Sequence record: PV467749.1
Direction: 5' to 3' (one strand)
Source: a phage
Length of the DNA stretch: 64,000 nt
In this document: one piece after another, positions 11,841-49,000 of the stretch
Layout of the letters: each line of letters starts with the position of its first letter
Position numbering within the stretch: the first letter of the stretch is position 1
Notes under the pieces: generated by a model
Told to the model about the DNA's origin: nothing
Seen by the model: the letters and a program-made list of their open reading frames with translations, nothing else
Database searches by the model: none
Position numbers and translations under genes: made by a program

Positions 11841-12938
11841 TTACTTAAAAGTATTTACAATTTCTAAAACACTTTCAAGATACTTAGCATCAAAAGTTTC
11901 AGTAAATCCTGATGGCAACTCTTCAGTACTTACCACACCACTTTCAATGTATTTCTTTATGAACTTTTCCAACAGTAATGGTTGATTGCCATCTTCAAAG
12001 TAGCGTTCTATAAGTACTTCATGCTCGAACTCAGAATTGCGGCTTTGTTCGTTAACACGGCGTTTCATATCACCAGTGATCCCATATTTGTACACCGTCT
12101 TGTTATTGTTAGTTAGTTTTTGTACATAGAAATATCCAGGTTTTGATGGTTGATATCCATATTCACCACATGATGGACATCCTTTACCAGCCATATGTGC
12201 TTTTGGTTGTTGGGAGAAGACACCATGAGTCGGACATACAATATCAATATAATTCTCGCTTAAAGTATATTCAACCAAGCTATAATCATACTTATGGTTA
12301 TGGATAGGCGACACAAGTTCAATGAAACGTTCAGTGCTTCTTCCACCTTTACCAGAACATGTACCGCAGCCAGTTTTACCCTTCAATAAAGTTTGGGCTG
12401 AAACAGTCCATTCGTGTTTACCGCGTGTGCAATATACGGTAACTTCCGTTTTATTGTTAACATATTTGGTATTTGGAAATTCAAACGCACCACCATAGTT
12501 TTCTTTTACTTTTGCGATGAATGATTCAGTACTGTATGCTTCATTTTTATTACAGACAGGACATCCCCTACCAGAAAGAAATTTGTTTGGTGTAATTTCA
12601 AAGTAATCGTTATGGTCTTCATCAGTGCAAAATAGTGTTACTTTTGTTATAGCGTTAGTGTAATTTAGTTTATCAAATTTGAATTTATCTTTACCAAATT
12701 TAGTTTCTACAGTACTGATGAATGTGTCGTTGTTTGAACGCTGTGACATGTTTGAATAACATGATGCACATGTACATGCAATGTGACGAAGTGCAGACTT
12801 GGTGTTTTCTTTCCCACACTTGTTACATTTTACTGTTGTTTTACTTGCCTTGAATACTAAAGTACTGAAGTCAAATTCTCCATACTTAGCAGTCATTTGG
12901 TTAATAAACTCTTCTTTGTTGATACTTACGTTTGGCAT
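11841..12938 (-). CDS. homing-endonuclease-like protein: repeated Cys/His zinc-ribbon-like modules + C-terminal GIY-YIG-like (T5orf172) domain
   Basis: Four repeats of ...Y.....C..HG.F.Q.P..H..G.GC..C; C-terminal PGYFYV...KYGIT...R; consensus sigma70 promoter upstream. Confidence 0.8.
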   Translation of the reverse strand: MPNVSINKEEFINQMTAKYGEFDFSTLVFKASKTTVKCNKCGKENTKSALRHIACTCASCYSNMSQRSNNDTFISTVETKFGKDKFKFDKLNYTNAITKVTLFCTDEDHNDYFEITPNKFLSGRGCPVCNKNEAYSTESFIAKVKENYGGAFEFPNTKYVNNKTEVTVYCTRGKHEWTVSAQTLLKGKTGCGTCSGKGGRSTERFIELVSPIHNHKYDYSLVEYTLSENYIDIVCPTHGVFSQQPKAHMAGKGCPSCGEYGYQPSKPGYFYVQKLTNNNKTVYKYGITGDMKRRVNEQSRNSEFEHEVLIERYFEDGNQPLLLEKFIKKYIESGVVSTEELPSGFTETFDAKYLESVLEIVNTFK

Positions 12939-13078: not shown

Positions 13079-14254
13079 TTACATGAAAGTAACGTTTTTG
13101 ATAGCGATTTTGCTGTAGTAGTCAGCAGCGTTACCTAGTGAACTGGTGCTATCGGTCAACTGTACATAGCCATATCTGGTTAGAAAAGTTGTAACGAGTT
13201 CCCCAGTGTTAGGGTCCATTACAGTACCGGAAGCCATTAGTGGGATGTATGGGCAATAGAACACACCAGCATCAGTTTCAGCGTTACCTTTGTAACCAAT
13301 TAGGATATCTTCAACATCACTTGCATAGGTATCAACGAAGATACGCATGGTGCTGTTTAGAGTACCAACAAATTTAACGTTAGTTGGAGCTTCGAAAGTA
13401 CCTTCAGTAGTACGTGCAAAACTAGAAGTAGTTGCAGACTGTAGAATGGTTAGAGCGGTTGGAGAAACAACAGCCCAGTTCGCAGCACCACGTTTGGTAC
13501 GACGAGCAACTTCGTTCGCTTGACGGTTGATTAGGGTAGCTAGAGCAGCGTGCTCGTCACCAACGAAGGTCGCAACACCAGTAACTTTAGATTGGTCATA
13601 AGTTACAGCAGCAGCACCAGGTAGTGCACGTAGACGGCTTAGTAGCTCTTGGTCGATTTCAACGGTAACTTCTTGAGCGATTGCAGCCATTAGTTCAGCT
13701 TCAACGTCAATACCATGTTGGGATTGTGCATCTTGTGCAGATTCAACAGTCCAACGTGCAGATAGACGACGAGATTTCGCTTCAACAGTTTCACGTAGAA
13801 TACGGATGTTAACGCGACGACCCATAGTACCTTCTAGTTGGCTAGTAGGAGCAGCTTGTGGGTTGCTGTTGTCTGCGTTTAGGTCACCAGTATAAGACTT
13901 AGCGATTTTGTATGGAGAAAGCATTTCTTCACCAGCGATAACACCAGGAGCGTTGTCAGCATATTGAACACGTAGGGTGTGGATCTGACCAACTGGGCCA
14001 GTCATTGGCTGAACACCGATGATTTCGTTAGCGATTACGGTTGGCATAACACGACGCATAATTGGTAGAATCACTTTGTTTAGAGTAGCGATGTTACCAG
14101 CGGTGGTTGCACCAGAAGTAGCAGATTCGTTTAGCATTAGTTTACGATGGTTATCAAGTACGGTTTCCATTACGGACTTACGAGTACCTTGTAGACCTTC
14201 AACTAGTTTCTCTTTAACTGCTACCCATTTGGATTCATTTAGTAGTTGTGACAT
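13079..14254 (-). CDS. major capsid protein (T4 gp23-like)
   Basis: IIGVQPMTGPVGQ vs T4 gp23 ICGVQPMNSPTGQ; VEAKSRRL...SAQDAQSQHGIDVEAEL vs IEAKSRQL...LAQDLRAVHGMDADAEL; IGYKGNAETDAGVFYCPY vs VGYKGPNEMDAGIYYAPY; AAGGAGAT RBS, TATAAATA upstream, strong terminator downstream. Confidence 0.92.
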   Translation of the reverse strand: MSQLLNESKWVAVKEKLVEGLQGTRKSVMETVLDNHRKLMLNESATSGATTAGNIATLNKVILPIMRRVMPTVIANEIIGVQPMTGPVGQIHTLRVQYADNAPGVIAGEEMLSPYKIAKSYTGDLNADNSNPQAAPTSQLEGTMGRRVNIRILRETVEAKSRRLSARWTVESAQDAQSQHGIDVEAELMAAIAQEVTVEIDQELLSRLRALPGAAAVTYDQSKVTGVATFVGDEHAALATLINRQANEVARRTKRGAANWAVVSPTALTILQSATTSSFARTTEGTFEAPTNVKFVGTLNSTMRIFVDTYASDVEDILIGYKGNAETDAGVFYCPYIPLMASGTVMDPNTGELVTTFLTRYGYVQLTDSTSSLGNAADYYSKIAIKNVTFM

Positions 14255-23372: not shown

Positions 23373-23858
23373 ATGAAGAAAAGATTAAAAGATAGTAAAG
23401 AAGCTGCAAACTATCGAAATGAATTACTAAAGAAGCAAAAAGGAATTGATCCTATAATTAAGGAACCAATAACTAAGCCAGTACTTGATCACTATCACTT
23501 CGAGAATCAACATTGTCGCGGAGTACTCCAGAATGAGATAAACGCCTTTGAGGGTAAGGTTTCCAACGCATGGAACCGATATGGAAAGCATTTAACTGAT
23601 ATGCCATTACATGAAGTACTAAGAAACCTTGCAGATTATCTTGAAAAGAACAATAATATCCCACTGGAAGAACAGGTGATTCATCACACGGCACTAACTG
23701 TGGATGTAAACAAGTTTAAAAGGCTCCCTGCAACGCGTCAGAACGAGATATTGGGGTTATGCGGTATAGAGCCATTACCTAATACAAAAGAACGCTCAAA
23801 GAGAGCTAGAGAGCTTATTAAGAAAGGAATTCTCAATATAAATGAATACAAAAAATGA
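23373..23858 (+). CDS. Endonuclease VII-family protein (T4 gp49-like resolvase)
   Basis: LDHYHFENQHCRGVLQNEINAFEG aligns with T4 endo VII LDHDHELNGPKAGKVRGLLCNLCNAAEG; HEVLRNLADYLEK vs YLEWLENLLTYL; zinc-ligand cysteines apparently absent. Confidence 0.7.
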   Translation: MKKRLKDSKEAANYRNELLKKQKGIDPIIKEPITKPVLDHYHFENQHCRGVLQNEINAFEGKVSNAWNRYGKHLTDMPLHEVLRNLADYLEKNNNIPLEEQVIHHTALTVDVNKFKRLPATRQNEILGLCGIEPLPNTKERSKRARELIKKGILNINEYKK

Positions 23859-24546
23859 TATTTTTATAGATAAAGCAAATATAAAACATAACAACAAATA
23901 TGAATATACATTAGTTGAGTATGTAAATAATTACACTAAAGTTAAAATTATATGTAAGAAACATGGTATGTTTTCACAAACTCCAAATCACCATTTAAAA
24001 GGAAGTGGATGTAATGAATGTTACTTAGAAAGCAAGCACGATACTAAAGATGACTTCATAAAAAAATCCATGAAAGTTCATGGTGAATTATATGATTACT
24101 CAAATGTGATATATAAATCTTCAAAGAAAAAAGTTGAAATTATATGCAATAAACATGGTTCTTTTTATCAGAGGCCACATGAACATATATCAGGTAAAGG
24201 TTGTTCAGAATGTGGAGTTGGTGGTTACAAGAGAAGTAAACCAGGTCGTTTATATGTATATGAAGTTTTACAAGACGACAAAACTATAGCATACAAATAC
24301 GGAATAACTAATGGTACTATTAATAATAGAAAATATTACCATGAGTATCACTCTAACTTAAAATTTAATTGTGTTTATGAACTATATGATGAAGATGGTA
24401 ATGTTCCATATAATATAGAAAAAGCAATAAAAGCTGGCATGAAAAGTGTTTTTTTATCAAAAACTATTTTAGAAGTTGGGTATACCGAAACGATAGAACC
24501 GTCTTTATATGAAGATTTGATTAATATAATAAAAAAAGGGAGCTAA
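23842..24546 (+). CDS. homing-endonuclease-like protein: two zinc-ribbon-like modules + GIY-YIG-like (T5orf172) domain
   Basis: Repeats YEYTLVEYVNNYTKVKIICKKHGMFSQTPNHHLKGSGCNEC and YDYSNVIYKSSKKKVEIICNKHGSFYQRPHEHISGKGCSEC; C-terminal PGRLYVYEV...KYGIT. Confidence 0.8.
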   Translation: MNTKNDIFIDKANIKHNNKYEYTLVEYVNNYTKVKIICKKHGMFSQTPNHHLKGSGCNECYLESKHDTKDDFIKKSMKVHGELYDYSNVIYKSSKKKVEIICNKHGSFYQRPHEHISGKGCSECGVGGYKRSKPGRLYVYEVLQDDKTIAYKYGITNGTINNRKYYHEYHSNLKFNCVYELYDEDGNVPYNIEKAIKAGMKSVFLSKTILEVGYTETIEPSLYEDLINIIKKGS

Positions 24547-32039: not shown

Positions 32040-34703
32040 ATGGCAGATACAAGTAAGAAATATGCCCAACAACAGTTGGGTCGTTTTGACCCTTCGTATC
32101 CACAACTAGCAACCGTGATGGATAACCGTGACCCAACTAAATCCGGTAAGCTAAAAGTGTGGATTCAAGGTTCACAAAGTGATAAAAATTCAAAAGAGTC
32201 ATGGATTGAAGCATCATACATGTCTCCATTCGCTGGTAAAACTCCAGGGATACCAAGTGCTGATGCTTATGGTCAATATCCAAAGGGATATGGTTTTTGG
32301 GCGGTTCCACCTGATGTCGGATGTACTGTTGTTGTTATATTTGCACAAGCAAGAACATTCCAAGCGTATTGGATTGGTTGTGTTTATGACCAACGTATGA
32401 ATACGATGGTTCCTGGGATGGCTACTGAAATAAGCAATTATGCAGGTACTGATATGCCATTACCCGTAACTGATTATGACCGTAATACAATTTCTACCAG
32501 TACTCAAGACAAATATGCAAACGTTCCAATTATTGCAGGTCTGAAAAAACAAAACTTACTTTATGATGAGGAAGCGGGTGTTGCTAACCGTAGTAGTACT
32601 CGCCAGACCACCAGTACTGTTTATGGTCTTTCCTCACCTCGTGGTAACAGTTTTATTATTGATGATGGTTACACAGAAGAAGAATTAACAGCACCTACAT
32701 GGGATCAAGATCCAGATGGTTATCAGGATACCCAATTCAATAACCCAGTGAACGATACTCGTGTTGGTTCTCGTAAAAATGAAGGCGTTGTAATTAAAAC
32801 ACGTAGTGGTGCACAGTTGTTGTTATCTGAAGCCTCTGGTGATGTTCTTTTAATTAACCGTGATGGTACTGCACGTATTAAATTCACTGGTGAAGGTGAT
32901 ATTGAAATGCACTGTGATAAGAATATTAACATTCGTGCAGGTCAAGATATTAACATGGTTGCTGGACGCTCATATAATATTGAAAGTGGAGCAGACTTCA
33001 ATGCTCGTGTTGGTGCAAACACTAAACTAGATTTGGTTGGTGCATTGGATGCTAAAGTTGGTGGTCAGGTTGTTATTAACGCTGGAGCAGATTTACGTTT
33101 AGTAACAGCAGCTTCATTACGTATGCAAAGTGGTAGCAGTACTGATATAACTGCTGGTTCTAATGCGTCAATCTCTGCTGCTACCAGTGCTAATCTTATT
33201 GGTTCTTCATCAGCTATTATTAGTGGTGGTGGTCAAACCCTTACTGTTAACAGTGGTGGTAATAGTGGTACTGCTGAATTTAATGCACCAAACTTCCGCA
33301 CCCCATCTGCTGGCTTGAATGATCATATACATGATATATCGGCTTGGGTTGATGCAGAGAATCACGGCAGTACTGTTGAACCTCCACGTCAAGGTGGTGG
33401 TAGTGGGAATAGTGAATCCCCAGTTCAACCTGAACCTGCTAATGATGTAGCTCCAACTTTAGCTCCAGTACAGGACACTGAAGCAATTCAATATGTAAAT
33501 TATACAACAGAAACAGAACAAGTTCAAACACAAGATTTAATGACTTCTGATCCTAGTATGACTGGTTATAGCATTACTTATGAAGGTCTTCATATGTTCA
33601 TGCCGTGTAGTGGAACCATTCGCCAATACGGTTATTGGGGGAAAGGTGTCCCGACTAGTGGTGGTGGTAAAGCTGATAGAAGTGGCTGGGAAATACAGTG
33701 CAAGGGTGATGTTGTAGCTCCAGATGGCGGTGTAGTTGTTATCACTAATGGTGCTTTATTGGTTCAACATAAGTCTGGATATAAATCTGTATTTTATAAT
33801 ATTCAATCAGATTTGCTCAATAAAGACGTTGTTCAAAAAGGTCAAGTTATCGGTAAAGCTAATGGTGTTATTCAATTTGAAATAAGAGTCACCTCTGCCA
33901 ACGTACTAGGATTTAGTGGTTCTGTTGACCCTGGATTATTCTATGCATCCCAGACTGGTACAGGTTCTGAAGCGGGAAATAAAACATTAATTGCAGGACA
34001 AGCAACGAACCAAGCAGCACCGAAAGCTGTTGTTCAACCTTCTGTTGATAGTGATGAATTAGTTGTAACAACTAAAATTAAAACTATCGGTACTGGGTAT
34101 TCTCAACGTGGTTCTCGTCATGTCCCTCGTCGTAGAAGAACACAACGTTCAGGTGGTACTCCAGCACCTACTGCACAAGAATCATACAATGTGGGTAATG
34201 TTGATAAGACTGCAATTGATTGGAAAGTTGTTCCGGGTGATTCACAATTTATTTCTGAATTGAAAGAATATGAAGGAACAATGGCGTATCAACAAGCTAA
34301 AGGATATTACCGCAATGGTAAATTTTGGAGATATTTGGATAGTCGTGGATTCCCAACTATTGGTTACGGTCACTTGATTGTTGGTGGTGAAAACTTCTCT
34401 GGTGGGATTACCGAACAGGAAGCCAATGATATGTTGGTGCGTGATAGTAGTAAGGCTATATATGACGCAAAATCCATTTACGCTTCTTATAAGATGAAAA
34501 CACCTTACATGGCACAACAAGTTCTATGTCAAATGGTATTCCAGATGGGTAAAGGTGGTGTAATGAAATTTAAGTCAATGCTATCTGAAATGGCTAAAGG
34601 TAACTACAAGCAAGCTGCTGCTCAAATTCGAAATTCAGCTTGGTATCGTCAAACTACACGCCGTGCTGAATTAATGGCACGTAGATTAGAGGCATGTCAA
34701 TAA
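32040..34703 (+). CDS. baseplate hub/puncturing protein (T4 gp5-like) with C-terminal GH24 lysozyme domain
   Basis: N-terminal OB-like region (KLKVWIQG...GCTVVVIFA) resembles gp5 N-domain; beta-helix-like Ser/Gly/Ala repeats; C-terminal CQMVFQMGKGGVMKF...SAWYRQTTRRAELM matches T4 lysozyme INMVFQMGETGVAGF...SRWYNQTPNRAKRV. Confidence 0.9.
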   Translation: MADTSKKYAQQQLGRFDPSYPQLATVMDNRDPTKSGKLKVWIQGSQSDKNSKESWIEASYMSPFAGKTPGIPSADAYGQYPKGYGFWAVPPDVGCTVVVIFAQARTFQAYWIGCVYDQRMNTMVPGMATEISNYAGTDMPLPVTDYDRNTISTSTQDKYANVPIIAGLKKQNLLYDEEAGVANRSSTRQTTSTVYGLSSPRGNSFIIDDGYTEEELTAPTWDQDPDGYQDTQFNNPVNDTRVGSRKNEGVVIKTRSGAQLLLSEASGDVLLINRDGTARIKFTGEGDIEMHCDKNINIRAGQDINMVAGRSYNIESGADFNARVGANTKLDLVGALDAKVGGQVVINAGADLRLVTAASLRMQSGSSTDITAGSNASISAATSANLIGSSSAIISGGGQTLTVNSGGNSGTAEFNAPNFRTPSAGLNDHIHDISAWVDAENHGSTVEPPRQGGGSGNSESPVQPEPANDVAPTLAPVQDTEAIQYVNYTTETEQVQTQDLMTSDPSMTGYSITYEGLHMFMPCSGTIRQYGYWGKGVPTSGGGKADRSGWEIQCKGDVVAPDGGVVVITNGALLVQHKSGYKSVFYNIQSDLLNKDVVQKGQVIGKANGVIQFEIRVTSANVLGFSGSVDPGLFYASQTGTGSEAGNKTLIAGQATNQAAPKAVVQPSVDSDELVVTTKIKTIGTGYSQRGSRHVPRRRRTQRSGGTPAPTAQESYNVGNVDKTAIDWKVVPGDSQFISELKEYEGTMAYQQAKGYYRNGKFWRYLDSRGFPTIGYGHLIVGGENFSGGITEQEANDMLVRDSSKAIYDAKSIYASYKMKTPYMAQQVLCQMVFQMGKGGVMKFKSMLSEMAKGNYKQAAAQIRNSAWYRQTTRRAELMARRLEACQ

Positions 34704-34716
34704 ATATTTCAGTACT

Positions 34717-34724
34717 ATAAATAA
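34717..34724 (+). promoter_or_regulatory. T4-type late promoter TATAAATA for endolysin
   Basis: atttcagtacTATAAATAataatgagg about 17 nt upstream of ATG 34741. Confidence 0.7.
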
Positions 34725-34740
34725 TAATGAGGAAATCTTT

Positions 34741-35229
34741 ATGAGTAAATGGGAAATCAAAAATACCGACGAACAATTTTTTAAAGAAATTAAAGAATTT
34801 GAAGGTACTATTGCGTATCAGAAAAAACTTGGTTATTTTAAAAATGATAAGTTTTGGGTATATAAAGACAGTCTAGGTCTTGATACCATTGGTTACGGTC
34901 ACCTTGTACTTAAGGGTGAAAGTTTCAAAAATGGACTCACTGAAGCAGAAGCTGATGCTCTCCTTATAAAAGATGCTCAGACCGCTTACAATGACGCAAA
35001 ATCAATCTATGATCAATTTGGAATGACTGCTCCAGTACAGGTTCAGCGTGTATTGTGGTTTATGGTGTTCCAAATGGGTAAATCAAAAGTTTTAAATTTC
35101 AAAAAAGCGATGGCTGCTCTCGGTCGTGGTGATTATAAAACTGCTGGTAAAGAAATGCGTGATAGTTCGTGGTACAAACAAACCACATCCAGAGCGGAGA
35201 AGATGGCTCGCATCGTCGAATCCGTATAA
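34741..35229 (+). CDS. endolysin, T4-lysozyme-like (GH24)
   Basis: EFEG...DTIGYGH...WFMVFQMGKSKVLNF...SSWYKQTTSRAEKM; RBS GAGGA; TATAAATA about 17 nt upstream of ATG. Confidence 0.9.
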   Translation: MSKWEIKNTDEQFFKEIKEFEGTIAYQKKLGYFKNDKFWVYKDSLGLDTIGYGHLVLKGESFKNGLTEAEADALLIKDAQTAYNDAKSIYDQFGMTAPVQVQRVLWFMVFQMGKSKVLNFKKAMAALGRGDYKTAGKEMRDSSWYKQTTSRAEKMARIVESV

Positions 35230-35244
35230 TAAAGGAAACACATA

Positions 35245-35640
35245 ATGGCAATTGTTTTTAAAGGTTTTTCAACTCCAGTAGTTGGAAGAACTGAAACATT
35301 GTATGACAGTGAATTGGTTCGTCAGGATTTAATGAATCATTTCAATACAAAAAAAGGTGAACGTGCATTTGATGCTGATTATGGGTTCATTGCGTGGGAT
35401 TTGCTATTTGAATTGGATGGTTATAATACAATCAACCTTTTGGAAGCAGATGCCCGTAGAATTATTAGCTTGGACCCACGTTTAAGCTTAAAGAAACTTC
35501 AAATATCAAGAATTGAGTACGGTTATCAGATGGATATAGTACTTGAATATGTTGTTCTCAATACTCTTGAAGAATTAACTATAGTTTTTGATGCAAGAAG
35601 TAACAACAGAATGGCTACCTATTCTGTATCATCTTTGTAA
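35245..35640 (+). CDS. baseplate wedge protein (T4 gp25-like)
   Basis: GERAFDADYGFIAWDLLFE vs T4 gp25 GSRPFDPEFGCDLSDQLFE; 131 aa; terminator downstream. Confidence 0.85.
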   Translation: MAIVFKGFSTPVVGRTETLYDSELVRQDLMNHFNTKKGERAFDADYGFIAWDLLFELDGYNTINLLEADARRIISLDPRLSLKKLQISRIEYGYQMDIVLEYVVLNTLEELTIVFDARSNNRMATYSVSSL

Positions 35641-35645
35641 ATTAT

Positions 35646-35675
35646 AAAAGCACTCTTCGGGGTGCTTTTCTTTTT
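35646..35675 (+). terminator. intrinsic terminator after gp25-like gene
   Basis: AAAAGCACTC-TTCG-GGGTGCTTTT with UUCG-type tetraloop, then T-run. Confidence 0.8.
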
Positions 35676-35712
35676 GGATAAATATTTCTATATATAATTT
35701 ATAGGATGATGT

Positions 35713-36477
35713 ATGAAATATGCAACAACCAGATCAACAAAATACAAATTTGTAACCAACGCCATTAGAGTGCATGGTATGCGTTATGATTATAGTATGG
35801 TTAAATATCATAATGCTAAAACAAAGGTGTGGATCGGATGTGAGAAGCATGGGTTTTTCCTACAAACACCAAATGACCATACATGTGGCAAAGGATGCAT
35901 GGAATGCTCGGTTGAGTATAATGCGAATCGTCAGAAAAGTCCACAGAACTTTATAAATTTTCTTAATAAGGCTAATTTAAAGTTTAGAAATAAATTTGAT
36001 TATAGCACAGTAGAATATGTTAATAATAAAACTCACATATCCATAATATGCCCAACACATGGGTCTTTTTTACAAAGACCTGATAATCATTTGTCAAGTA
36101 AGTATGGTTGTGAGAAATGTATGATTGAATCAACGCAATCAAAAGCAGTAACTGATATTGAAAAAATGATATCTTTCACTAATTATGTTAAAGAAAAGCG
36201 TTTTGATGATTGTAGAAACATATTAACTTTGCCATTTGATTTTTATATTGAAGATTTAAACTTGTGTATTGAATATGATGGTGAACAACACTTTCGATGT
36301 TCTGAACATTGGGGTGGTGACAAATCGCTAAAACAAACTCAACACAATGATAAAATTAAAAACACGTACTGTGCTGACCATGATATTAACTTACTTCGTA
36401 TCAAATACGATGAAGATCATATCATCGTACTAAAAAAGTACTTTTATGATAATTTTAACATAATATTAAAGGATTAA
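35713..36477 (+). CDS. homing-endonuclease-like protein: two zinc-ribbon-like modules + C-terminal PD-(D/E)xK (DUF559/Vsr-like) nuclease domain
   Basis: Repeats YDYSMVKYHNAKTKVWIGCEKHGFFLQTPNDHTCGKGCMEC and FDYSTVEYVNNKTHISIICPTHGSFLQRPDNHLSSKYGCEKC; C-terminal LCIEYDGEQHF...LLRIKYDE. Confidence 0.8.
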   Translation: MKYATTRSTKYKFVTNAIRVHGMRYDYSMVKYHNAKTKVWIGCEKHGFFLQTPNDHTCGKGCMECSVEYNANRQKSPQNFINFLNKANLKFRNKFDYSTVEYVNNKTHISIICPTHGSFLQRPDNHLSSKYGCEKCMIESTQSKAVTDIEKMISFTNYVKEKRFDDCRNILTLPFDFYIEDLNLCIEYDGEQHFRCSEHWGGDKSLKQTQHNDKIKNTYCADHDINLLRIKYDEDHIIVLKKYFYDNFNIILKD

Positions 36478-36481
36478 TACA

Positions 36482-39400
36482 ATGTCACAACAAAAAAGAC
36501 AGTCTAATTTATATAGTGGTGAGGATTGGACTCAAGTATATGAAAGTTTCTATAAAATCAATCTTACGGCATATGATTTTGATACCATTCGTCAAAGTAT
36601 GATTGATTATCTACGTGCTACGTACCCCGATTCTTTCAACGATTGGATCGAAAACGACCAGTTTATCTTTATTCTAGATACCATTTCTATGCTAGGCCAG
36701 AACTTAGCATTCCGCATGGACTTAAACACCCGTGAGAACTTCCTAGATACTGCTACTCGTCGTGCATCAGTACTGAAACTCGCAAAAATGATTTCTTACT
36801 CTCCACGCCGTTCATATCCAGGTCGTGCAGTTGCTAAATTAACAGAAATAAAAACCAACCAAGACGTTCGTAATAGTTTTAACGAATCACTTAAGGATAA
36901 AATCATTCGTTGGAATGACCCAATGGACACAAACTGGTATGAGAACTTCATTCTAGTTATGAACAGTTCATTTGTCAGTACTAACCAGTTTGGTAATCCG
37001 GTTAAACGTATCGATATCAATGGTGTTTCTCGTCAGCTATATCGTATGAATACAATTCCAATGTCAGCACCAAGTCTTCCATTCACAGCTACAGTTAATG
37101 GTGAATCGATGACATTTGAAGTTGTCAACCCTGATATTACCGCAGTTGGTGTTGAAGAGCGTCACCCTGAACCACAAGAGCAAAAATATATCGTTTATCA
37201 GAATGATGGTAACGGATTTAGTTCTCCAAATACTGGTTTCTTCGTTTATTTTGTTCAAGGGACATTGACATACCAAGATTACCAATATAATATTCGTGAA
37301 GAAAACCGTATCCAAGACATCAACGTAGATAATATCAACGAAACTGATGTTTGGGTTCAGGAAATCAACGAAGATGGTATTGTACGTACTAAATGGACCA
37401 AAGTTCCATCTATGGAAAGTATCGCATACAATACTGTTAACCGTCAACTAAAAACAATCTTTGCTGTCACAACTCGTGATAAAGACCAGATTACTATTAA
37501 GTATCCTGATTCTCGTAGTGGTGTTGTTCCTCGTGGGACATATCGTGTATGGTATCGTGTTAGTAATGGTGAAACATACAACATTAAAACGTCTGAAATC
37601 CAGAACAAAAGTGTAAAATACACCTATAGAACCAAAACACAATCAAGCTACGAATCCAGTACTTTGGATATTCGTTTCACATTGCAATATGAATCAGATC
37701 GTGCACAAAGTGCAGAAACAATTGAACAAATTAAGGCTCGTGCTCCACAAATGTATTACACTCAAAACCGTTTTGTTAACGGCGAAGACTATAACATTGC
37801 TCCGTTGAGTTTGGGTAACACAGTTCTTAAATCTAAAGCAATTAACCGTTTATATAGTGGACAGTCACGATTCATTGATATTAATGATCCAACTGGTAAG
37901 TATCAAAACACTGATGTGTTTAGTGATGATGGATCAATGTATCAAGAAAACACACAATTTAATAAATCTTTACAATTACCAACTACCAAAACAAATGCTA
38001 GTATTGTAATTGATAATATTCAGCCATTGATTGGTGAGAATGCTGTAATCCAACGTTATCAAGCATATCCACCGAATACAATTGGTATTGAAATTCAACA
38101 AAAATGGACACCTGAATACAATTCTAATTACGCAACTAATACGTATGGTCGTATTATGGGGGCAACAGGTAACGTATTCGGAAATTATCAAGTTGGTACG
38201 TTGATTAAGTTTTCAAATGCCGGAACTACTGTGTGGGCTAGTATTGTTAGTGTTCTTGATAATGGATATTACGTTCTAAGTACTTCAGTTTCATCAAATA
38301 TGCAAGCACAAGAGTACATTTTACAATACAGAACACGTTTTAATAGTGTCGAAGTGCAAGCAATCGCCGCAATGCTTGATAAAAAGACAGATTTTGTTAT
38401 TATTCATGATAAAGAAACAACTTCTTGGATTCCATTAGAAATCAGTACTGATGAAGATACTATTTCTTATAATGGAAATGAAGTTCTTGTTATGATTAAC
38501 ATCAAATATACTGCTGAAACATGGGAATTTGATGCGAATGGCGTTGAATATGTGTTCGTTGGTGGTGATAAAGTTCGTTTTTACTTCGTTTCTTCTAAAA
38601 AGATAACTGATATTAGTACTGGTAGTGTTCAAAGTGACAAAATTGAAATTTTATCATCAAATACCACAAGCAATAGTAATGCTGGGTTGACAAGTAACAT
38701 AGATTTCCAAATTTATGACACAATTCAACAAGAAAACGGGTATCTTGATGGTTCTCGTGTGGTTATCACCTCTGAAAACGTTGATAGTAATGGAATCCCA
38801 CTAGAACCTAATCAATTCAGAGAAATTGTACCAAATTGGACTGGTGAAGATTCAGTTAAATATGGTGGTATATTGGTTTTCCAAGAAAACGATGATTTCA
38901 CTATATCAGTACTGTCATTACCGAACGATACTTTCACTATTCTTGATTCTTCATGGGCTTATACAATGGATCAGGCACTTGCAGAAACTAATGCGTATAA
39001 GAGAAGTGAATTTGTTCGCAACAATGCTATTCGCTCAACAACATTGAGTGGTATCTATAGTAAAGGTTCAGGCTTTATGGTTGGCTTTAAATATGATGGT
39101 AAATATTACTTCATTGAACAAACTGTTGGTAATAATAATGACCGTTTAAACCAATTAATTGAGAACTTGACCTATTCTGATGATACAACTGCTGCAACTC
39201 CTGAACTTGCGTTTTATCGTGCTATTGTTAATATCGGTACTAATGCTGATGTTAACCAAAAGTTAGATTATTATGGTTATAAAGATGTAACTTCACAATA
39301 TACCGTAAAAACGAATGCAAGAACTGGTATTGATTTCCACTGGAAACATTATGCACCAGATGATAATCGCATTGACCCAAGTAGAACAAACTTGATTGAC

Positions 39401-39943
39401 ATGTATGTATTAACCAATTCATACAAAACTGAAGTTGATGTATGGTTGAAGAATGGAACACAAGGTAATATGCCTAAACCGCCAACATCTGTTGAATTGA
39501 AAGACATTTTTAAAGAAGTTGAACAAAAAATAGTCATCAGTGACAGTATTATTTGGCATAGTGCAGAATATCTACCATTATTTGGTGCGAGTGCTGCTGA
39601 AGATTATAAAGCAGATTTCAAAGTCGTCAAATTGCCTAACAGTACAATGAGTGATGATGAAATTCGTCAAAATGTCGTAGCACTAACTAACGAGTATTTT
39701 AATGTTGACAACTGGGATTTTGGTGAAAGTTTCTATTACACAGACTTGTGTACATACATTCACTCCCAATTAGGACGACATATTAGTACTATTGTTATCG
39801 TAGCTCAAAACCCTAACTCTAAATTTGGTTCACTATTTGAAATACCTTCACGTTCTGACCAGATTTTCTTAAGTACTGCATCAGTTGATAACGTACAGAT
39901 AGTCAATTCCTTGGCTAAGAGTAACATTAACATTGGTTCATAA
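36482..39943 (+). CDS. baseplate wedge protein (T4 gp6-like N-terminus), 1153 aa
   Basis: N-terminal YDFDTIRQSMIDYL region resembles T4 gp6 YDFEGSRLNVLCDLL; follows gp25-like gene; terminator downstream. Confidence 0.8.
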   Translation: MSQQKRQSNLYSGEDWTQVYESFYKINLTAYDFDTIRQSMIDYLRATYPDSFNDWIENDQFIFILDTISMLGQNLAFRMDLNTRENFLDTATRRASVLKLAKMISYSPRRSYPGRAVAKLTEIKTNQDVRNSFNESLKDKIIRWNDPMDTNWYENFILVMNSSFVSTNQFGNPVKRIDINGVSRQLYRMNTIPMSAPSLPFTATVNGESMTFEVVNPDITAVGVEERHPEPQEQKYIVYQNDGNGFSSPNTGFFVYFVQGTLTYQDYQYNIREENRIQDINVDNINETDVWVQEINEDGIVRTKWTKVPSMESIAYNTVNRQLKTIFAVTTRDKDQITIKYPDSRSGVVPRGTYRVWYRVSNGETYNIKTSEIQNKSVKYTYRTKTQSSYESSTLDIRFTLQYESDRAQSAETIEQIKARAPQMYYTQNRFVNGEDYNIAPLSLGNTVLKSKAINRLYSGQSRFIDINDPTGKYQNTDVFSDDGSMYQENTQFNKSLQLPTTKTNASIVIDNIQPLIGENAVIQRYQAYPPNTIGIEIQQKWTPEYNSNYATNTYGRIMGATGNVFGNYQVGTLIKFSNAGTTVWASIVSVLDNGYYVLSTSVSSNMQAQEYILQYRTRFNSVEVQAIAAMLDKKTDFVIIHDKETTSWIPLEISTDEDTISYNGNEVLVMINIKYTAETWEFDANGVEYVFVGGDKVRFYFVSSKKITDISTGSVQSDKIEILSSNTTSNSNAGLTSNIDFQIYDTIQQENGYLDGSRVVITSENVDSNGIPLEPNQFREIVPNWTGEDSVKYGGILVFQENDDFTISVLSLPNDTFTILDSSWAYTMDQALAETNAYKRSEFVRNNAIRSTTLSGIYSKGSGFMVGFKYDGKYYFIEQTVGNNNDRLNQLIENLTYSDDTTAATPELAFYRAIVNIGTNADVNQKLDYYGYKDVTSQYTVKTNARTGIDFHWKHYAPDDNRIDPSRTNLIDMYVLTNSYKTEVDVWLKNGTQGNMPKPPTSVELKDIFKEVEQKIVISDSIIWHSAEYLPLFGASAAEDYKADFKVVKLPNSTMSDDEIRQNVVALTNEYFNVDNWDFGESFYYTDLCTYIHSQLGRHISTIVIVAQNPNSKFGSLFEIPSRSDQIFLSTASVDNVQIVNSLAKSNINIGS

Positions 39944-39987: not shown

Positions 39988-40023
39988 AATCAAATGAATG
40001 AACGAATTATATGGAGTCCAAAA

Positions 40024-43000
40024 ATGACTAATAATTTTAAGTTTCAACCTACACAGATGGCTGAAGCAGTACAGAAGAAGCTTTTCATAAAAAGATTGCC
40101 TGAGTGGATGCAAGGCTTAGAAGATATTCAGAAAGTCAGTGATGATGTTATCCAACAATGGTTTAATCCGGCTGAAAACGAATTAGTTGACGGCTACATT
40201 GGTGACATGGGTTCTCCGGCAGCAGCAGGGAACATCTTCTTACACGAGTCAACAGTCGCACGTCAACTATATCAGTTGTCCACTGCGTATGTCTCAAGAA
40301 ATGATGACTCCAGCATTCGTTCAATTCAATTTTATGATGATCTAGTTGGCTATATGAATCATTACGGGGCACTAACCGAAAATGAAAGCCGTTTGTTTAA
40401 TGGTAAGTTCTATTCATGGACCCCACCAATTAACCCTAACAAAATGAACAACTACAGTTCATATCTATGGGATTCCAAGAATAGCTATAATATCGCAACT
40501 CCAGATTATATTGTAATGGAACGTGGTGCAGAAAATGGAAACACTTGGTCACTACAAAACTTCTGGTACACATTAGGTGAAACTTTAGAAGATGGTACAA
40601 TCCTAACTGAAGAACTAATGCAAGATTCCCGTTTTGTTCGTGCTCGTGCTCCAATTATCGAATACAATAAAAATATCGAACTAATGAACTACGGTACTAA
40701 ATTCCGTGGGACAGTTGATTTGTTCTCTGATATTATTAAACCTGAAGATATCGTACAAAAAGATATTAACAGCGGTATACGTATTGATGGTATTATTCCA
40801 CAAGATGGTATGCGTATTCTTTTCACCAGTATTGGTAACAATGGTGAAAACAACCGAATTTATAAAGTATATGTTAAACGTATGCAAGATGGAACACGTG
40901 TGTATGGTCTAGCATTAGACCCAGACGAAGAATCTGAAAGCCGTCCGAGTGGTGAACCACAAGATGGTGACGTAGTTCTTATTATCAAAGGTAATGAATT
41001 TGGTAACAGTTCCATGTATTGGGACGGTTCTCATTGGATTCAAGCACAGTCTAAAACTTCTGTGAACGTATTTCCACAATTCCAATTGTATGACCGTAAT
41101 GGTGTTAAACTAAACAACACTACTACCTATCCATCAAGTACTTTTACTGGTTCTTCATTATTTGGTTTTAAAATTAACTATAATTATGCAACCGATAGCG
41201 TTTATGGTTATAACATTGAACTGGGTGATTACAATTATTACACCTATGAGAATTTCCTACAATCAACTCGTTATACCTACGAGCATTTGGGTGTGGAAGT
41301 TGAAATTGATGGACTATATTACTATAACGTAATTGGTGAAGGTAATACAATGAACCTAGAAACTGATTGGGTTCGTAGTACTGAATACTCCAAACAATAT
41401 GTTAAACAAACTCCACAGGTTGAACGTACAGTAATGTTCCGCGTGTTCAGTACTGTTTATGACATGGAAAGTTTCAAAGATCCAGTTGAAGGAATGTATG
41501 CTTATGTAATTGAAGTTGACAGAACTTATCAATATTACAAAGCAGAACGTGAAACATATCTTGATTGGCATGTTATCGTTGGTGATGGGGTACAAAGCGT
41601 TAAGTACAATCATACATTTGAATTGGCACAAAAAGTACTAGATAATTCTGATGATATTATCGAACTAGTTGTTGATGGTGTGGAAATAAAAGAATACACC
41701 AAAACTGTAGTTAATAATCAAGTACAAAGTATTACAATTGATAGCTCTGTTGATTTGGATGAAGATTCTGTTGTACAAATAAGAACTTATAGTAGCACTA
41801 TCACTCCTAATAAAGAGTTGGGTGCATATGAAGTTCCAATTAACCTACAAAATAACCCATATAATTCAAACATTGAATACATCAATCAAGGTGATTACAC
41901 CCTGCACTTCCAAGATATTATTCAAAAGAATATTACATCTGGTTCTGCTGATGACTTTAACAATTACGAAGAACGTTTGGCTGCTGGTTTGGTTAATAAT
42001 GGTGTAGGCACTAAAATTATTCAAAACGAAGCGTCCATGTTACCACTAATGGCACATACCGCTAATGAAGATATTGATTTGTTTGAATCAATCATGTTTA
42101 TGCAAGCAGAATACTTCCGCTTCATTAACAAGTTCAACACTCAAATGCTTCGTTTGTATGAAGAAGACCCAAGTGCTTTTCTTGGTAATAGTGCATCAAA
42201 CATCGTAGATGCGATTCTAACAGCTATTAATATGGGACGTGATAGTTCATTCCCATTCTACTATGACAACGTTGCAAGCACTGCTGGGTTTATTCGTGCA
42301 TTTGTCCCACCAACTCCACAGTTCTTGGGTATTTTGCAAGCTTATACACCACAAAAAGCAACATTCTTAACTGCTGGTAGTAAATCTAGCTGTTATAATA
42401 TCAGTCATACTGGTGTTATTTCAAAAGCATACCGTGTTATCAATGGTGTTGATAAAATGGATGACGTAGTTTTTGAATTGGAAAATCGTATCTTTAATAG
42501 TATTGACCTTACTTTCAAGGATATTGATTATAAACCAGTACTAAACAGTGAAGACCTATTCCCAACTCCATATTTCACTGGTACTGATTATAGTGCAGAA
42601 GAAAAGAAAACTCTATTACTACGTGGTTACATTAACTTCACAGCAACCAATGGTATTAGTAACAGTACTCATGATTATGATGCAAATAACTGGAGAACTT
42701 GGAACTATACTGGTAGTTATTATGTTGTTGATGGTCAACGTACTGAAATTCCTGCTCGTGGTTCATGGCGTGCAATCTATACTGACCAATATGGCACATA
42801 TCGTCCAGCAACCCATCCGTGGGAAATGATGGGCTTCTCTCAACGTCCTACTTGGTGGAACCAAGAATACGAACCAACCGCAGTTCAAGTTGGTGAACGT
42901 GAGGGTGATGTTGTTTATGTGTATGAAGCACTAGTAATGAATGAAAATGGTGATTTGGTCCCAAGTGGATTGTGGGATATTGATGGTACTATCGGTGACA

Positions 43001-46000
43001 GCAGCACTGGTACTATTTTGTCCGGTGAACGCCGTGGTCAATATGACAAATACAAGCGTTTCGGTGTACAGCCATTTAAAATCACTAAGACTGGCGAGAA
43101 AACCAGTACTGGTATTGATATTTGTGAAGTTGAGTATATTGCACCTGAAGTTTTAGGTCTTGTTAGTGGTAATTTAGATCATCGTGCAGAACCGTGGGCT
43201 TATGGTGACATGGGTGACATGGAATTCACTTACATGAACACTGCGATGTTTGCTTATGACCAAATGCTTCTTCTATACAAAGCAAAACCAGCACAGTTTG
43301 CAAACTATTACTGGGATACCCGTAATGATAACCTTAAACCAGTTTATACTGATGGTTCACAGTTCCTTTATGGTGAAACCCGTAAGCGTCTAAACTTTGA
43401 CAGTGCTACATTAGTACATGGTGAGAAAAATACCCGTACTATCGGTTATCAAATGTTTGTTAGTGACTATTTGATGTATCAGAATAAGAACATTACCACC
43501 AAATACGGTGACGTTGTTCGTTCTTCTTATGTCAATGTCGCTCACAAAATTGGTGGCTTTACTAAAGCAGACCAATTGACATTCACTGCTAAATCTTTCG
43601 GTTTGATTTCACAAGAAAACCAAACTATCGGTCTAGTTCGTTCCAATAACATTCGCGATGAGCAAATGAGTGCAGTAAAAATTACTTGGAATGGTAGTGC
43701 ATATCAAATTGATGGTTATGATTTAGTTGGTGCTAAATTTAAATATAAAATTCCAGTTAAAAATGGAAGAAAAGTAACTCTTAAATTGGAAGACAGAACT
43801 GTTGTTCATTACAATGAATGGAAATCTGAAGGTACATTAGAATATGGTAAAATATTCAATACATACCAAGAAGTTTATACTTTCATTTGTGGATATGGTG
43901 AATATCTAAAAGAACATGGCTGGATTTTTGAAGATGTAAATGATAGTGGTGCTCAACAAGACTGGACAACTATTGCTAAAGACTTTGTTATTTGGAGTCA
44001 GAATAATTTAAGTACTGGTGAGTTCATCTCCTGTACTCCAAGTGCAGCTAATGCTAAATTTGGTGCAGATTTTGGTTCAGTTCAATCTGTTACACAGAAC
44101 AGTGGTGGTGTTTGGTCACTACTCGATGATGAAAACCAAGGTATCCGTCAATATGAAATCGAAACTTCGCGTATCGGTAACGTATTCACAGTGAGAACTA
44201 CATCTGAATCACAAAAACGTATGGCGTTGATTCGTTTGAGCCTAAGTTCATATGAACACGCAGTTGTTTTTGATGATAAAACTATCTTTGGTGATTACAT
44301 TTACCAACCAACTTATGGTGCTATTCAAGAATTGATTAAAATGTATGGTTACATTACTGGGGCATGGACTGGTCGCCTACAAGCACCTGGTTTCATTATC
44401 CTAGAAGCAGGAACTTTACCATCATTTGAAAAATTAGTAACTGATTTTGAATTATATTATAATAGTGAAACTCCTGTGAGTGATGTTCAGCTTCAAGAGT
44501 TATCAAATCACTTGATTGGCTATCAAACTCGTGATTATCTACAACGTATGATTAGTAGTGATGTTAGTCGTGTTGATTTCTATAAAGGATTCATTCATGA
44601 CAAAGGTACTAACCAAGTAATGGAAAAAGTACTACGCGTTTCTAAATCTTACGACACTGATGAATATAAAGCACTACAGGAATGGGCATTTAAGATTGGC
44701 ACTTATGGTAATATCAATGGTAAGAAAAATCTACAATTTAAACTAATCAATGACCAATTTAAACAACAACCACAGATGGTTTCGTTTGATGTTAATGCTA
44801 CATCAAATGGTACTGGTAATGGTATTGTTTATTACGGTGAACAAGGGGTTGACTCACGCTGGATTACTCGTCCAAATGGTAAGTTTTCATTCCCAATGCG
44901 TAGTGGAAGAAGTGAGAATATCCAACTTCCAGACATTGGCCCAGTAACACTAGATGAAATTTCATACGTTACTAAAGATTTCAGTACTGCATATAATGAT
45001 CGTATCAATTATATGAATAACAGTGGTGAAATACCAGATTCTGTATGGATGTTTAAAGATGGTAATGATTTGTGGAATATTTTCGAACTAGTAGACACTG
45101 AAGTTGAGATGCTCTCTATCGTTCCAATTGAAAATACCGATGTATATGCAGAACAATTCTGTAAAGTAACTCTAAGTGATGATATCCCACTAAATGATGG
45201 TGATTATTATTACTTTGTTGATGAAACTAACTTTATGCCAGATACATTGACTATAGAAAGTCAATATTATACTGCGGGTAATGACCCTAGAGTTATGGTA
45301 GTTCCGTTTGACACTTCAATAACTATTGACTTCACTGATCCTGATACTCGCCCACGCTTGTATCGTTATGTTTCACGATTCAGTACTGAAGAGATGCGTC
45401 AGGAATACATTGACAGAAAATATAGTTTTAAAGCTCCACAAAGTACTTTGTTTGACCGCCCAACCACATATGATGAGCGTACTAACATTACTGCGTTGTA
45501 CCTAAACGTGTTTGACCCAATCAACGGTGTTATTCCTGGTGCAGCGATGCAGAACGTTACCTACACATCTCCAGTTGACCCAGCACAATACAACAGCAAT
45601 GGTGAATTGATTCAAGCATGGGGTGCTGATAAAGTTGGTCAGGTTTGGTGGAACACCAGCACTGCTTTCTACTTAGATTACACTCGTGCAATCTATGATG
45701 CTGATGGTAATGTGGATGTTGATGCAACAAATGAATATAAACGTTATAACTGGGGCAGATTGCTACCGCACAGTACTGTTGATGTTCTTGAATGGGTATG
45801 TTCGCCAGTGGAACCATATAACTGGGACAAATACTGTAAAGACGTTGCTAACAAAAATAAAAACAATACTATGTACCTACCAAGCGGAACCGCATTGGAA
45901 GATAATTATAGTACGTTCTTAGAATATGATAGCACAACTGATACTTATGTTACAAAATACTATTTCTGGGTTCGTGATACAATCTATGTACCACCATTGC

Positions 46001-49000
46001 ATTCCAGAACTAAATCTTGTACTGATATTGCTCGTATTATTAAAGAACCAGCACAGCTTAACATTCCTTGGTTTGCACCAATCAATGAAAGCTCGTTCAT
46101 TCTAAGTAATATGCAATTTGAAGTCAACGATGACACAAGTATTTTAACTGTTTCTTATTACATGGATAATACTGAAGTTATTAAACATGACCAGTATCAA
46201 TTATGTAAAGAAGGTGATAGCTATAACTTCAATCCATCAATCTGGACTTCTATGTGGAATTCTATGATTGGTCAAGAAACTACTGAATCAGGAACTGTTA
46301 TTGATTTACTATATCCTTTAGTACCAAACGGTTTAGGTTCTAATAAGACTTGGTTCCAAGATGTAATTGAAGCTCGTAGAAACTTTGTAGAAAGTGCAAA
46401 TAACTATTATCGCTCACAGAATATAACAACTAACACTGTTCTAATGGACGAAGTGTTTAATGTTAAAACTACTGAAGTTAACCCGAATGAAGTATCATAT
46501 CGTGTACTAACTTACAATAGTGAATTAGTCATTGCACCTGAAAGTGACAAGTTCAAAGAAAACGACGCAGTACTAGTAAGTACTAGTGGTGTATTACCTA
46601 ACCCACTATCAACTAGCTCTGTATATTTTGTGCATATTGATGCTAATGGTTATATTCATCTAATGAATAGTCCATCAAGTGCTGGTAGTGTGGTTACCAT
46701 TACATTGGAAAACCGTGGTGAAGGTCAACAGAAAATGATTAAACAATCAGACTATGTTGAAGCACTAGGAACTTCATTGGACATGACCCAGTACTGGTCA
46801 CTAGCAGATTGGTATGATATTGGTTACGATAAAAATACTGCATATACACAAGAATCCAGCCTAGAAGATGCAAACACTAAGAACTATCAAGTTGGTGACA
46901 TTATCAGAATTACAGATGTTGATGGCATCTGGACATTGTACATTAAAGCACAATCACGTGATTCAGTTTACTGGAAAGCAATTGGTCGTGAAAATAGTAC
47001 AGTTGAATTGAATGATATGTTATACGCTGACTATACAGTTCGTGATGCTAATGGTTCGTTGAGTAATCGTGAGATTAACGTTCGTAAAGCACTAGCTTTA
47101 TTGAAGAACTCATTCGACTTACATCAGAGTGAAATTGTGTTTGATATGGTTAAGTATGTTCACGTAGAACAAAGCGTTGTTGATTGGGTATTCAAAACAT
47201 CTTACATTTATATTGTAGGTTTAGAACAATCATTAGTACAGAACTATTCCAACGACAACTTGATTAATCAAATCGTTGAGTACTTTGAAGAAGTTAAACC
47301 ATATAGAACTAAGATTCGTTCCCAGATTGAACAGAAAACATCAGATGATGATTTAATTAAAGGTTTGTGTAATGATTTAGATCCTAATGGCTATATATTT
47401 GCAGATGGGACTTGGGTTAAAACGGAAAAAGACATTTGGGATTATGAATATGCTCAATTCAATGAGGTAACTCAACGTTGGGAGCAAGTTGGTGAATTGC
47501 CAAGTGATTTCGTAACACCTAATCGCCGTTTCCAAGAAATTGATGTTATCATGCACTACGACAACACTCAATGTAAACCAAATGATAATTTGGCAAGTGT
47601 TGATGTATTGGAAGAAGTGAATAAGAAATATCAATCTAATGCACAAGATGTTGTTAGTAATTTTGAATTACAACGTTACAAATATACATTCCCAGAATAC
47701 AGTGATGAAGATTTCGACCTATTGGTTGCTTATCAGATGCAATTGTATTACCCAGAATTGAACGTAACTCTAGGGATTGCTTACGGTGTTAACCAATGGT
47801 ATGCAGACCATGCAGATGATTTGGTAGCAACCGCAGAATTCACAGAAACGTTGAATCGTGTATATAAAGAATCAACACAAAATGAAATGTTTAATGACGT
47901 AAATCATTACGTTCAGTATAACACACTCTCTAACCGTTTGAAATTGTACACAGGTGCAGATGATGAAGTAATTCATGATGAAGTTGGATGTGGATTTAGT
48001 GGGTTAACCTATGATGATAATCCAAGCACCAGACTACCGTTTGGTTATGCATCCAGTACTGATTATAACTTTGGTTACTTTGAAGTTAGTAGTGAGTTGT
48101 ATAAAAAGTATGTTTCTTTAATTAAAGAAAACAATACTACTGCAACTGATGATGAAGTTAGAATTATACTTGAAGTTGAATATGGTGTTTATTCATATCG
48201 CCATGTAGATGAAGATGGAAATCAACGATTCTACAATGACGCAATTCATGTATTGTCCGGTATGCGTGGTTTGTATGACAAAGATGCTACCGACCATTAT
48301 GAAAAGGCTGAAGAAATACTAAGTAGAATGCCTATTGATATTCATGCATTTACTATGATGCCACGAAAATATGTTTATGTTAATGTTAATGGTGTATACG
48401 AGAGTATCCCAGATGACCAAAGCATTGATGATTTCATGGAAGACAAATTCATAACTGACGGTCAACTAGTTCAATTGGCAGAAATAAATCTTGATGACTT
48501 ACCTCTTGATAGAAATAACCCAATGTACAGTGATTATCAGCACATCCTAGATAGCATCACCGATGCTAAGTACTACGATGATATGAATGCATTTGATAAC
48601 CTAGCACTTGAATCACAAACTTCCGAGTTAAAATGGGAAGTTGAAGGTGACGAAGTAGATCCGTACATAATCGACATTTCTGATATTAACCCATCAGGAA
48701 GAAAGATTGGTCAGATTCGCTTCACAGTTGATGGTTATGGATTCAATAGTGTTTCACTAGTTCAATTGAGAGACAATAGTAGATATAAAACTGAAGGTAT
48801 GGTTATTATCAACCCTTATAAAACAACAGAAGCAATTGTTAGTATTCCTTCTTACGCTAAGATTGAAAATGATATTAGTAAATCATACAGTAAGTATGAT
48901 GAAAAATACTTCTATAAAATTAAATCAATTGTTAGTGATACAGAAGCTGAAGTAATTGACAATACCCTATCTGATGGTGATAAGGTTATGATATTCACAA

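Follow-up and report, generated by a model that had tools for sequence, protein, structure and literature searches.

What kind of gene settles between two conserved baseplate genes of a jumbo phage, and how did it come to be there? We examined this question in a 64,000-nt stretch of phage record PV467749.1 (hereafter the window), which comes from an Asteriusvirus, an Escherichia coli jumbo phage of the 121Q/PBECO4 type, and in which an open reading frame (ORF) of 254 amino acids (aa) runs from ATG to TAA (35713-36477, plus strand) between a gp25-like and a gp6-like baseplate wedge gene. Taking together the ORF call, Pfam and PHROG matches, the predicted fold, substitution rates and the comparison with relatives, we put the probability at roughly 80% that this ORF is an intact free-standing homing endonuclease gene, whose product combines a Vsr-like nuclease with two zinc-finger modules. 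The original prediction for this locus, an endonuclease gene lying between the gp25-like terminator and the gp6-like start with a 4-nt gap to the latter, was confirmed in its coordinates and neighbours, and its interpretation as a homing-endonuclease footprint gained support from polymorphism among near-identical relatives, from an alternative occupant of the site in phage TH47 and from an adjoining foreign tract.

Pfam returned one significant match for the 254-aa protein, DUF723 (PF05265; aa 84-136, E 1.2e-7), which scored 31.9 bits against a gathering cut-off of 20.9 with the CxxH...CxxC ligands present, and weaker matches below threshold to DUF4379 (weak, aa 30-66), DUF5889 and DUF2726. 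Among 52 homologues, DUF4379 was matched in 46, DUF723 in 43, DUF5889 in 21 and DUF2726 in 15. Together with the alignment and an AlphaFold model (predicted local distance difference test score, pLDDT, 91.9), these matches delineate two tandem DUF723/DUF4379 treble-clef zinc-finger modules at aa ~6-74 and ~77-141 (35728-36135, plus strand), which are predicted to bind DNA and presumably read its sequence; their ligands (C43, H46, H56, C62 and C65; C113, H116, H126, C133 and C136) are invariant in the 52-homologue alignment. Compared with the PD-(D/E)xK-type domains DUF559, DUF2726 and DUF5889, of which the latter two stayed below threshold, the protein had no DUF559 (PF04480) match at E <= 0.1, and only one of the 52 homologues had one (E 0.0064). 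The earlier description of the gene as DUF559-type was thus right in spirit, at the level of the fold only, but does not stand as a family assignment.

The zinc-finger modules are followed by a Vsr-like, EDxHD-type nuclease domain (aa ~144-248; 36142-36456, plus strand), identified by its fold match and its invariant residues. The best fold matches were Vsr and the homing endonuclease I-Bth0305I, with Foldseek also returning 1vsr, and residues D176, E187, G190, H193, D213 and K216 are invariant in the 52 homologues, with D189 nearly so. Searches of PDB sequences with the single protein and with the 52-sequence profile gave no meaningful match, and neither it nor the window's other endonuclease-like ORFs had an NCBIfam hit. 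An hhalign comparison of the family profile with E. coli Vsr was not significant (E 0.51); it pairs D176 with D51, E187 with F62 and G190 with G65, in agreement with the literature, and was used only as weak support. We conclude that the protein joins a zinc-finger array to a Vsr-like EDxHD-type nuclease. Its family comprises 384 homologous protein clusters at E <= 1e-5, with tblastn matches in 1005 phage records, and several of its JGI entries are named 'very-short-patch-repair endonuclease'. The ratio of nonsynonymous to synonymous substitution rates (dN/dS) against the copies in phages 121Q and JNE01 was 0.08-0.11, in both domains, showing that the gene is under purifying selection.

EDxHD homing endonucleases have a Vsr-like fold with equivalents of Asp51, His69 and Asp97 and an invariant Glu where Vsr has Phe62 (PMC2677866, PMC3239194), and the family also includes the free-standing Hef enzymes of T4-related phages (PMC3239194). 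The window protein resembles I-Bth0305I and its EDxHD relatives (Dassa 2009, Taylor 2011) in the order of an N-terminal DNA-binding region and a C-terminal Vsr-like nuclease, in the conserved Asp/His/Asp and the Glu at the Phe62 position, and in being phage-borne, with EDxHD members also found free-standing. Unlike typical members, it carries two DUF723/DUF4379 zinc-finger modules in place of NUMOD2/helix-turn-helix; it also differs in that its activity is a predicted one, that it has no detectable sequence similarity to 3r3p, that its D213 helix is longer and that its gene is intergenic, not within an intron. Arrays of DUF723/DUF4379/CapR zinc fingers are the DNA-binding modules of T5orf172 homing endonucleases (Barth et al. 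2023, PMC10448857), which share with the window gene the repeated modules, the position adjoining essential structural genes and the marking of recombination boundaries, but whose nuclease domain is T5orf172/GIY-YIG-like where that of the window protein is Vsr-like. The window protein looks like the product of a domain swap that placed a Vsr-like nuclease onto a T5orf172-type DNA-binding scaffold.

How is this gene distributed among relatives? The region 34700-37500 matches 35 phage records, all of them Asteriusvirus-type phages of Escherichia or Salmonella, at a best identity of 98.5%. Four of the 35, representing three phages (121Q in two records, JP4 and JNE01), carry the endonuclease gene at the junction, with 82-86% nucleotide identity to the window copy, whereas it is absent from ~30 relatives, including some whose flanks are ~99-100% identical. 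In ten records with 96-98.5% identity to the window, the match is confined to the flanks; nine of these have an empty site, and TH47 has an unrelated gene. Comparing related phages at the junction, as the original prediction had proposed, uncovers a presence/absence polymorphism, and the same gene is not found at the same site in all relatives. Copies at the junction also occur in three contigs of metagenomic or assembly origin. One of them, the Logan contig L006, has an intact copy with 99% aa identity, and a second, the more distant Logan contig L024 with RaK2-like gene order, has an intact 262-aa copy with 64% identity that keeps the 4-nt spacing to the gp6-like gene. The third contig (L023; JBPBSK010000028.1 of GCA_050939295.1, an assembly labelled E. 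coli) holds at 2313-3049 a 121Q-like copy with 97% nucleotide identity that is broken into ORFs of 63 and 182 aa by indels of +1, +1 and -2 in or beside homopolymer runs; as such indels may be sequencing or assembly errors, we did not count this copy as a decaying intermediate.

The sites classed as empty contain traces of the gene. The 248-nt intergenic region of RaK2 encodes ...LLRIRYDENHISVLIQHFKNTFNIILKE*, which matches the last 28 residues of the endonuclease (tblastn E 8e-10), and the IMG/VR contigs L014 and L015 have a mini-ORF consisting of a start and the last ~20 endonuclease codons (E 4e-6 for L014). The 43-nt spacer of the gene-less Asteriusviruses matches the L014 remnant at z 9.5, with none of 1000 shuffles reaching the score, and the end of the 121Q gene at z 5.9, and it keeps the homologous AAGGA serving the gp6-like gene. 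The 75-nt spacer of GAP32 and the 67-nt spacer of Yen9-04 showed no similarity. Judged by these sequence matches, what remains at the empty sites is the decayed 3' end of this gene, its last ~43 nt in most relatives, and the remnant now supplies the ribosome-binding site of the gp6-like gene. The picture of an insertion between two genes was accordingly correct for the position but not for the nature of the site, which is no virgin spacer, since the empty alleles are remnants of the same gene.

Between Ecwhy_1 (L001, 2479-2584) and PBECO4 (L005), which represent gene-less clades 16% divergent from each other, the longest identical run in 5 kb is a 106-nt block made up of the promoter motif described below, the 43-nt remnant and gp6 nt 1-41; the central 95 nt, the empty-site sequence, are identical in 25 records. 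The block could reflect constraint on the 5' untranslated region (UTR), a recent spread of the gene-less allele or a role as homing site. An RNA hairpin was dropped as an explanation, as it lacked statistical support against shuffles: the gp6 5' UTR can form a 7-bp hairpin from two AGTACT palindromes, with folding energies like those of shuffled sequences (z -0.7 to -1.8).

In TH47 (L003, MT446416.1), the junction is occupied at 2512-3219 by an unrelated 235-aa ORF, assigned to phrog_314 'homing endonuclease' and with a GIY...YIG-like N-terminus, which was found in no other phage record. This ORF lies behind a leader (TCATGGAGTGATGT) common to the Vsr-like gene of 121Q and JNE01 and ends in GAGGAATAAATT-ATG like the remnant sites, and it looks like a precise ORF-for-ORF replacement. 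The replacement of one endonuclease gene by another at a single site is familiar from T4-related phages (SegH/Hef versus MobC/MobE), and TH47 and the window likewise carry different endonuclease families at one site.

Did the gene arrive in the window together with neighbouring DNA? Relative to Ecwhy_1, the window has no difference over the 1320 nt upstream of the gene (34380-35699) and is ~99.5% identical beyond gp6 nt 250, whereas gp6 nt 18-249 holds 24 differences and the 2230 nt that follow hold 10 (Fisher p 4e-17), delimiting a foreign, putatively co-converted tract in the 5' part of the gp6-like gene (36482-36730, plus strand). By this comparison, the window carries a foreign patch of ~1.05 kb, consisting of the gene and the first ~250 nt of the gp6-like gene, in a background otherwise identical to Ecwhy_1. 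The first 60 nt of gp6 in the window are 100% identical to 121Q and 98% identical to JNE01, and among gene-bearing lineages in general these 60 nt are 98-100% identical while the remainder is ~86% identical; further into the tract the window has alleles of its own, and the donor was therefore an unsampled lineage. A separate, independent tract occupies gp6 nt 18-288 in TH47, with 94.6% identity to JNE01. All gene-less Asteriusviruses share one common remnant, so the clade of the window descends from a gene-less ancestor and the gene was regained in the window lineage.

Within the foreign tract, a cluster of six substitutions (36499-36516, plus strand; gp6 nt 18, 21, 24 and 33-35), which tends to go with presence of the gene, marks a candidate recognition or cleavage region, presumably in its resistant form here. 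All four gene-bearing lineages have AGACAGTCTAAT...AGTGG at gp6 nt 16-38, where the three Asteriusvirus lineages read AGACAGTCTAATTTATATAGTGG and L024 reads AGACAGTCTAATCTTTTTAGTGG, while the prevailing gene-less allele is AGGCAATCAAATTTATACGCTGG; GAP32 and Yen9-04, of never-invaded genera, have CAATC(A/C) and GCT in this region. G21, T24 and the AGT codon 12 (Ser12) occur together in four of four gene-bearing lineages versus one of 11 lineages without the gene, and the variant carried with the gene comprises A21G, A24T and Ala12Ser in the gp6-like gene. Within gp6 nt 1-60, 121Q and its close relative PBECO4 differ at the six cluster positions and nowhere else. These positions lie to either side of a central AAATTT, an arrangement that would suit a dimeric nuclease, and we propose gp6 nt 18-35 as a hypothetical homing target.

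Taking these observations together, we propose that the endonuclease gene would be transcribed late, from the ATAAATA promoter that otherwise serves the gp6-like gene, and that upon co-infection with a gene-less relative the enzyme would cut the relative's genome near the gp25|gp6 junction, most likely in the conserved 5' end of the gp6-like gene around nt 18-35. The break would then be repaired by recombination from the gene-bearing genome, copying the gene together with adjacent gp6 sequence, while the carrier genome would be protected by its A21G, A24T and Ala12Ser target variant. Intronless homing is known for the free-standing T4 endonucleases SegF, SegG and MobE, which the window gene resembles in being intergenic between conserved essential genes, with the target presumed in a neighbour and flanking markers co-converted. 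It differs from the T4 systems in that it resides in RaK2-like jumbo phages and has another enzyme architecture, and in that the evidence here is comparative.

The layout of the junction bears on how the gene and its neighbour would be expressed. The upstream conserved neighbour, the 131-aa gp25-like gene (35245-35640, plus strand; Pfam GPW_gp25, E 1.5e-8; phrog_43), is 100% identical to its Ecwhy_1 counterpart and is followed on its 3' side by an intrinsic terminator-like hairpin, AAAAGCACTC-TTCG-GGGTGCTTTT, with the stem-loop at 35646-35669 and then a T-run (35646-35675 in all, plus strand), kept in all relatives examined. Past this terminator lies the late-promoter-like motif ATAAATA (35678-35684, within the extended form ATAAATATTTCTATA at 35678-35692, plus strand), 35 nt before the endonuclease ATG, and a putative Shine-Dalgarno-like AGGA (35703-35706, plus strand) precedes that ATG by 6 nt. 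The endonuclease TAA (36475-36477) is separated by the 4-nt spacer TACA from the ATG at 36482 of the gp6-like gene (36482-39943, plus strand; 1153 aa; phrog_10646, E 0; phrog_219, E 3e-21), a conserved neighbour on the downstream side that probably carries the target site and whose Shine-Dalgarno AAGGA (36469-36473, plus strand) lies within the last endonuclease codons (L-K-D-stop), 8 nt before its start. A second terminator-like hairpin, internal to the endonuclease gene (36050-36064), was not treated as a terminator, because its sequence coincides with conserved codons (CPxHG) and 121Q does not preserve it.

ATAAATA has been proposed as the late promoter of RaK2-like phages (PMC5259590). Of its 19 copies in the window, 15 are found 10-70 nt before the start of an ORF on the same strand, where 0.4 would be expected, and the extended motif has seven matches against 0.84 expected, a distribution consistent with a T4-like late promoter of predicted activity. 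Its sites in the window include 23336, 34700, 34717, 35678, 39981 and 58068 on the plus strand and 11116 and 21382 on the minus strand; the motif also precedes an endonuclease VII-like gene and a small T5orf172 gene. The same motif precedes the gp6-like gene in gene-less relatives and in GAP32. No ATAAATA was found between the endonuclease gene and the gp6-like gene, which makes it most likely that a late transcript runs through the endonuclease ORF and carries the latter gene as its second cistron; translational coupling between the two is possible. Because the endonuclease gene lies between the promoter and the gp6-like gene and ends with AAGGA, the gp6-like gene would stay expressed as a second cistron. 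The original prediction that its expression is forced to depend on read-through or reinitiation calls for correction: the promoter motif lies past the terminator and the gp6-like gene has its own Shine-Dalgarno sequence, so that neither would be required.

Could the gene instead be an old resident, passed down by vertical descent and lost repeatedly, with the polymorphism and the patch arising from ordinary recombination among co-infecting Asteriusviruses, and with a protein that may have a different role or no homing activity? The synonymous divergence (dS) among the gene copies of the window, 121Q and JNE01, 0.8-1.2, is about equal to that of gp25 and gp6 (1.0-1.6), remnants in several genera speak for an ancient presence, and the genomes are mosaic elsewhere, with identity to Ecwhy_1 falling to 94-95% in other parts of the window. 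We nevertheless regard this explanation as rather unlikely, because the single common remnant of the gene-less Asteriusviruses means that the window regained the gene, the foreign tract starts exactly at the gene and stops ~250 nt into gp6, a tract of comparable length arose independently in TH47 next to another kind of endonuclease gene, and the protein combines invariant catalytic residues with strong purifying selection on both its zinc-finger and its nuclease parts. Several observations do weigh against homing all the same. The foreign patch could also come from ordinary homologous recombination without a targeted break, and since the dS of the gene copies resembles that of the flanks, part of the pattern can be accounted for by prolonged vertical inheritance within the clades, combined with recurrent loss; the lineages are, moreover, few and phylogenetically non-independent. 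On the side of the target, phAPEC6 has the gene-type gp6 allele with a remnant only, looking like a 121Q-type genome that carries both, UE-S1 and ph0011 are mosaics and EJP2 has G21; a strict one-to-one tie of the gp6 allele to gene presence was rejected on these grounds, and because of these exceptions the target assignment is offered as a hypothesis. On the side of the enzyme, the equivalence of its catalytic residues with those of Vsr and I-Bth0305I is suggested by a fold match and a non-significant alignment, with no sequence-level similarity detectable, and double-strand cutting is assumed, Vsr being a nickase. E. coli Vsr acts in repair and, unlike the window protein, has no zinc-finger array and a different genomic context.

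A nuclease domesticated for the benefit of the phage, for late cutting of competing phage or host DNA or for tuning the gp6-like gene by translational coupling, with mobility incidental, would account for the dN/dS of about 0.1, for the 4-nt spacing and the Shine-Dalgarno sequence in the last codons, both kept from Asteriusvirus to the RaK2-like contig L024, and for the predicted expression from a late structural promoter. We judge it improbable, as ~30 viable close relatives without the gene express the gp6-like gene from the same promoter with the 43-nt remnant, an unrelated endonuclease can replace the gene, and several other endonuclease-like genes of the window are equally polymorphic, which is usual for selfish elements. 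Least likely is an HNH endonuclease or a group I intron-encoded endonuclease, as suggested by the RefSeq entry for the 121Q orthologue gp584 ('HNH endonuclease', with the note 'protein associated with group I intron') and by the PHROG 559 label 'HNH endonuclease'. No HNH Pfam family matched the protein or any of its 52 homologues, and the nuclease fold is Vsr-like, so the label was rejected and the PHROG 559/RefSeq annotation is wrong for this endonuclease. The ORF has a start and a stop codon of its own and lies between two genes that are both complete, and an Rfam search of 35200-36900 found no intron, on which grounds intron encoding was rejected as well. An intact, free-standing and recently mobile homing endonuclease gene is the reading that we retain.

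Other endonuclease-like genes of the window show comparable features. A 234-aa ORF (23842-24546, plus strand; phrog_681), which combines two DUF4379/DUF723-type zinc-finger modules with a C-terminus of T5orf172/GIY-YIG-like type, is wedged between the endonuclease VII-like gene (23373-23858) and an SbcC-like gene. Its region was covered in none of 48 related phage records, all of which match ~64% of the query in two pieces, and the ORF looks like an endonuclease insertion unique to the window phage among sequenced relatives. On the minus strand, a 365-aa ORF (11841-12938) has several zinc-finger modules and a T5orf172-like end (phrog_681, E 1e-76) and, together with a separate 107-aa T5orf172/MUG113 ORF (11119-11442), adjoins the major capsid gene (13079-14254). 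This endonuclease island beside an essential gene is polymorphic, with the whole region covered in 13 of 58 matching records.

The wider neighbourhood of the junction has features of its own. Upstream, a gene for an 887-aa gp5-like hub/lysozyme (32040-34703) is followed by a 162-aa gene (34741-35229) that duplicates the C-terminal lysozyme domain (phrog_13211 positions 727-885), and the pair is kept in all relatives. Eight third-position differences from Ecwhy_1 cluster at 34325-34379 in the lysozyme domain of the 887-aa gene, in identical surroundings, and several of them move towards the paralog at 34741-35229 (including a 15-nt identical run, ATTGGTTACGGTCAC); gene conversion by this paralog may have left the small patch, with the comparison to the paralog being ambiguous. 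Directly 3' of the gp6-like gene, a single 3333-aa ORF (39994-49995, plus strand), with ATAAATA before it at 39981, presumably encodes a giant protein of the baseplate/tail-fibre complex.

What does this locus tell us about jumbo phages? That the window carries a recently mobile endonuclease gene of EDxHD type with a zinc-finger array is, on the comparative evidence, well supported, and it represents a known phenomenon familiar from T4-type phages. More tentatively, the gene may be the first worked example of an uncharacterized homing architecture, a treble-clef zinc-finger array with a Vsr-like nuclease, that occurs widely among jumbo phages under the mistaken name HNH, whose decayed 3' end was co-opted as the gp6 5' UTR and ribosome-binding site, and whose enzyme might recognise a ~20-bp pseudo-palindrome centred on AAATTT. 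If so, a zinc-finger array joined to a dimerising Vsr-type nuclease would offer a compact, re-targetable nuclease scaffold. The comparison singles out gp6 nt ~15-40 as a concrete candidate target of an enzyme class for which I-Bth0305I is the one biochemically characterized relative considered here. In most Asteriusviruses, an essential baseplate gene owes its translation signals to the 3' end of a defunct selfish gene, a case of exaptation. A single junction records the life cycle of homing endonucleases in jumbo phages, with sites that are never-invaded (GAP32, Yen9-04), intact, reduced to a remnant, re-invaded (the window) or taken over by a replacement (TH47). Current understanding is not overturned by these observations, which carry established principles over to another phage group and to a domain combination that is new.

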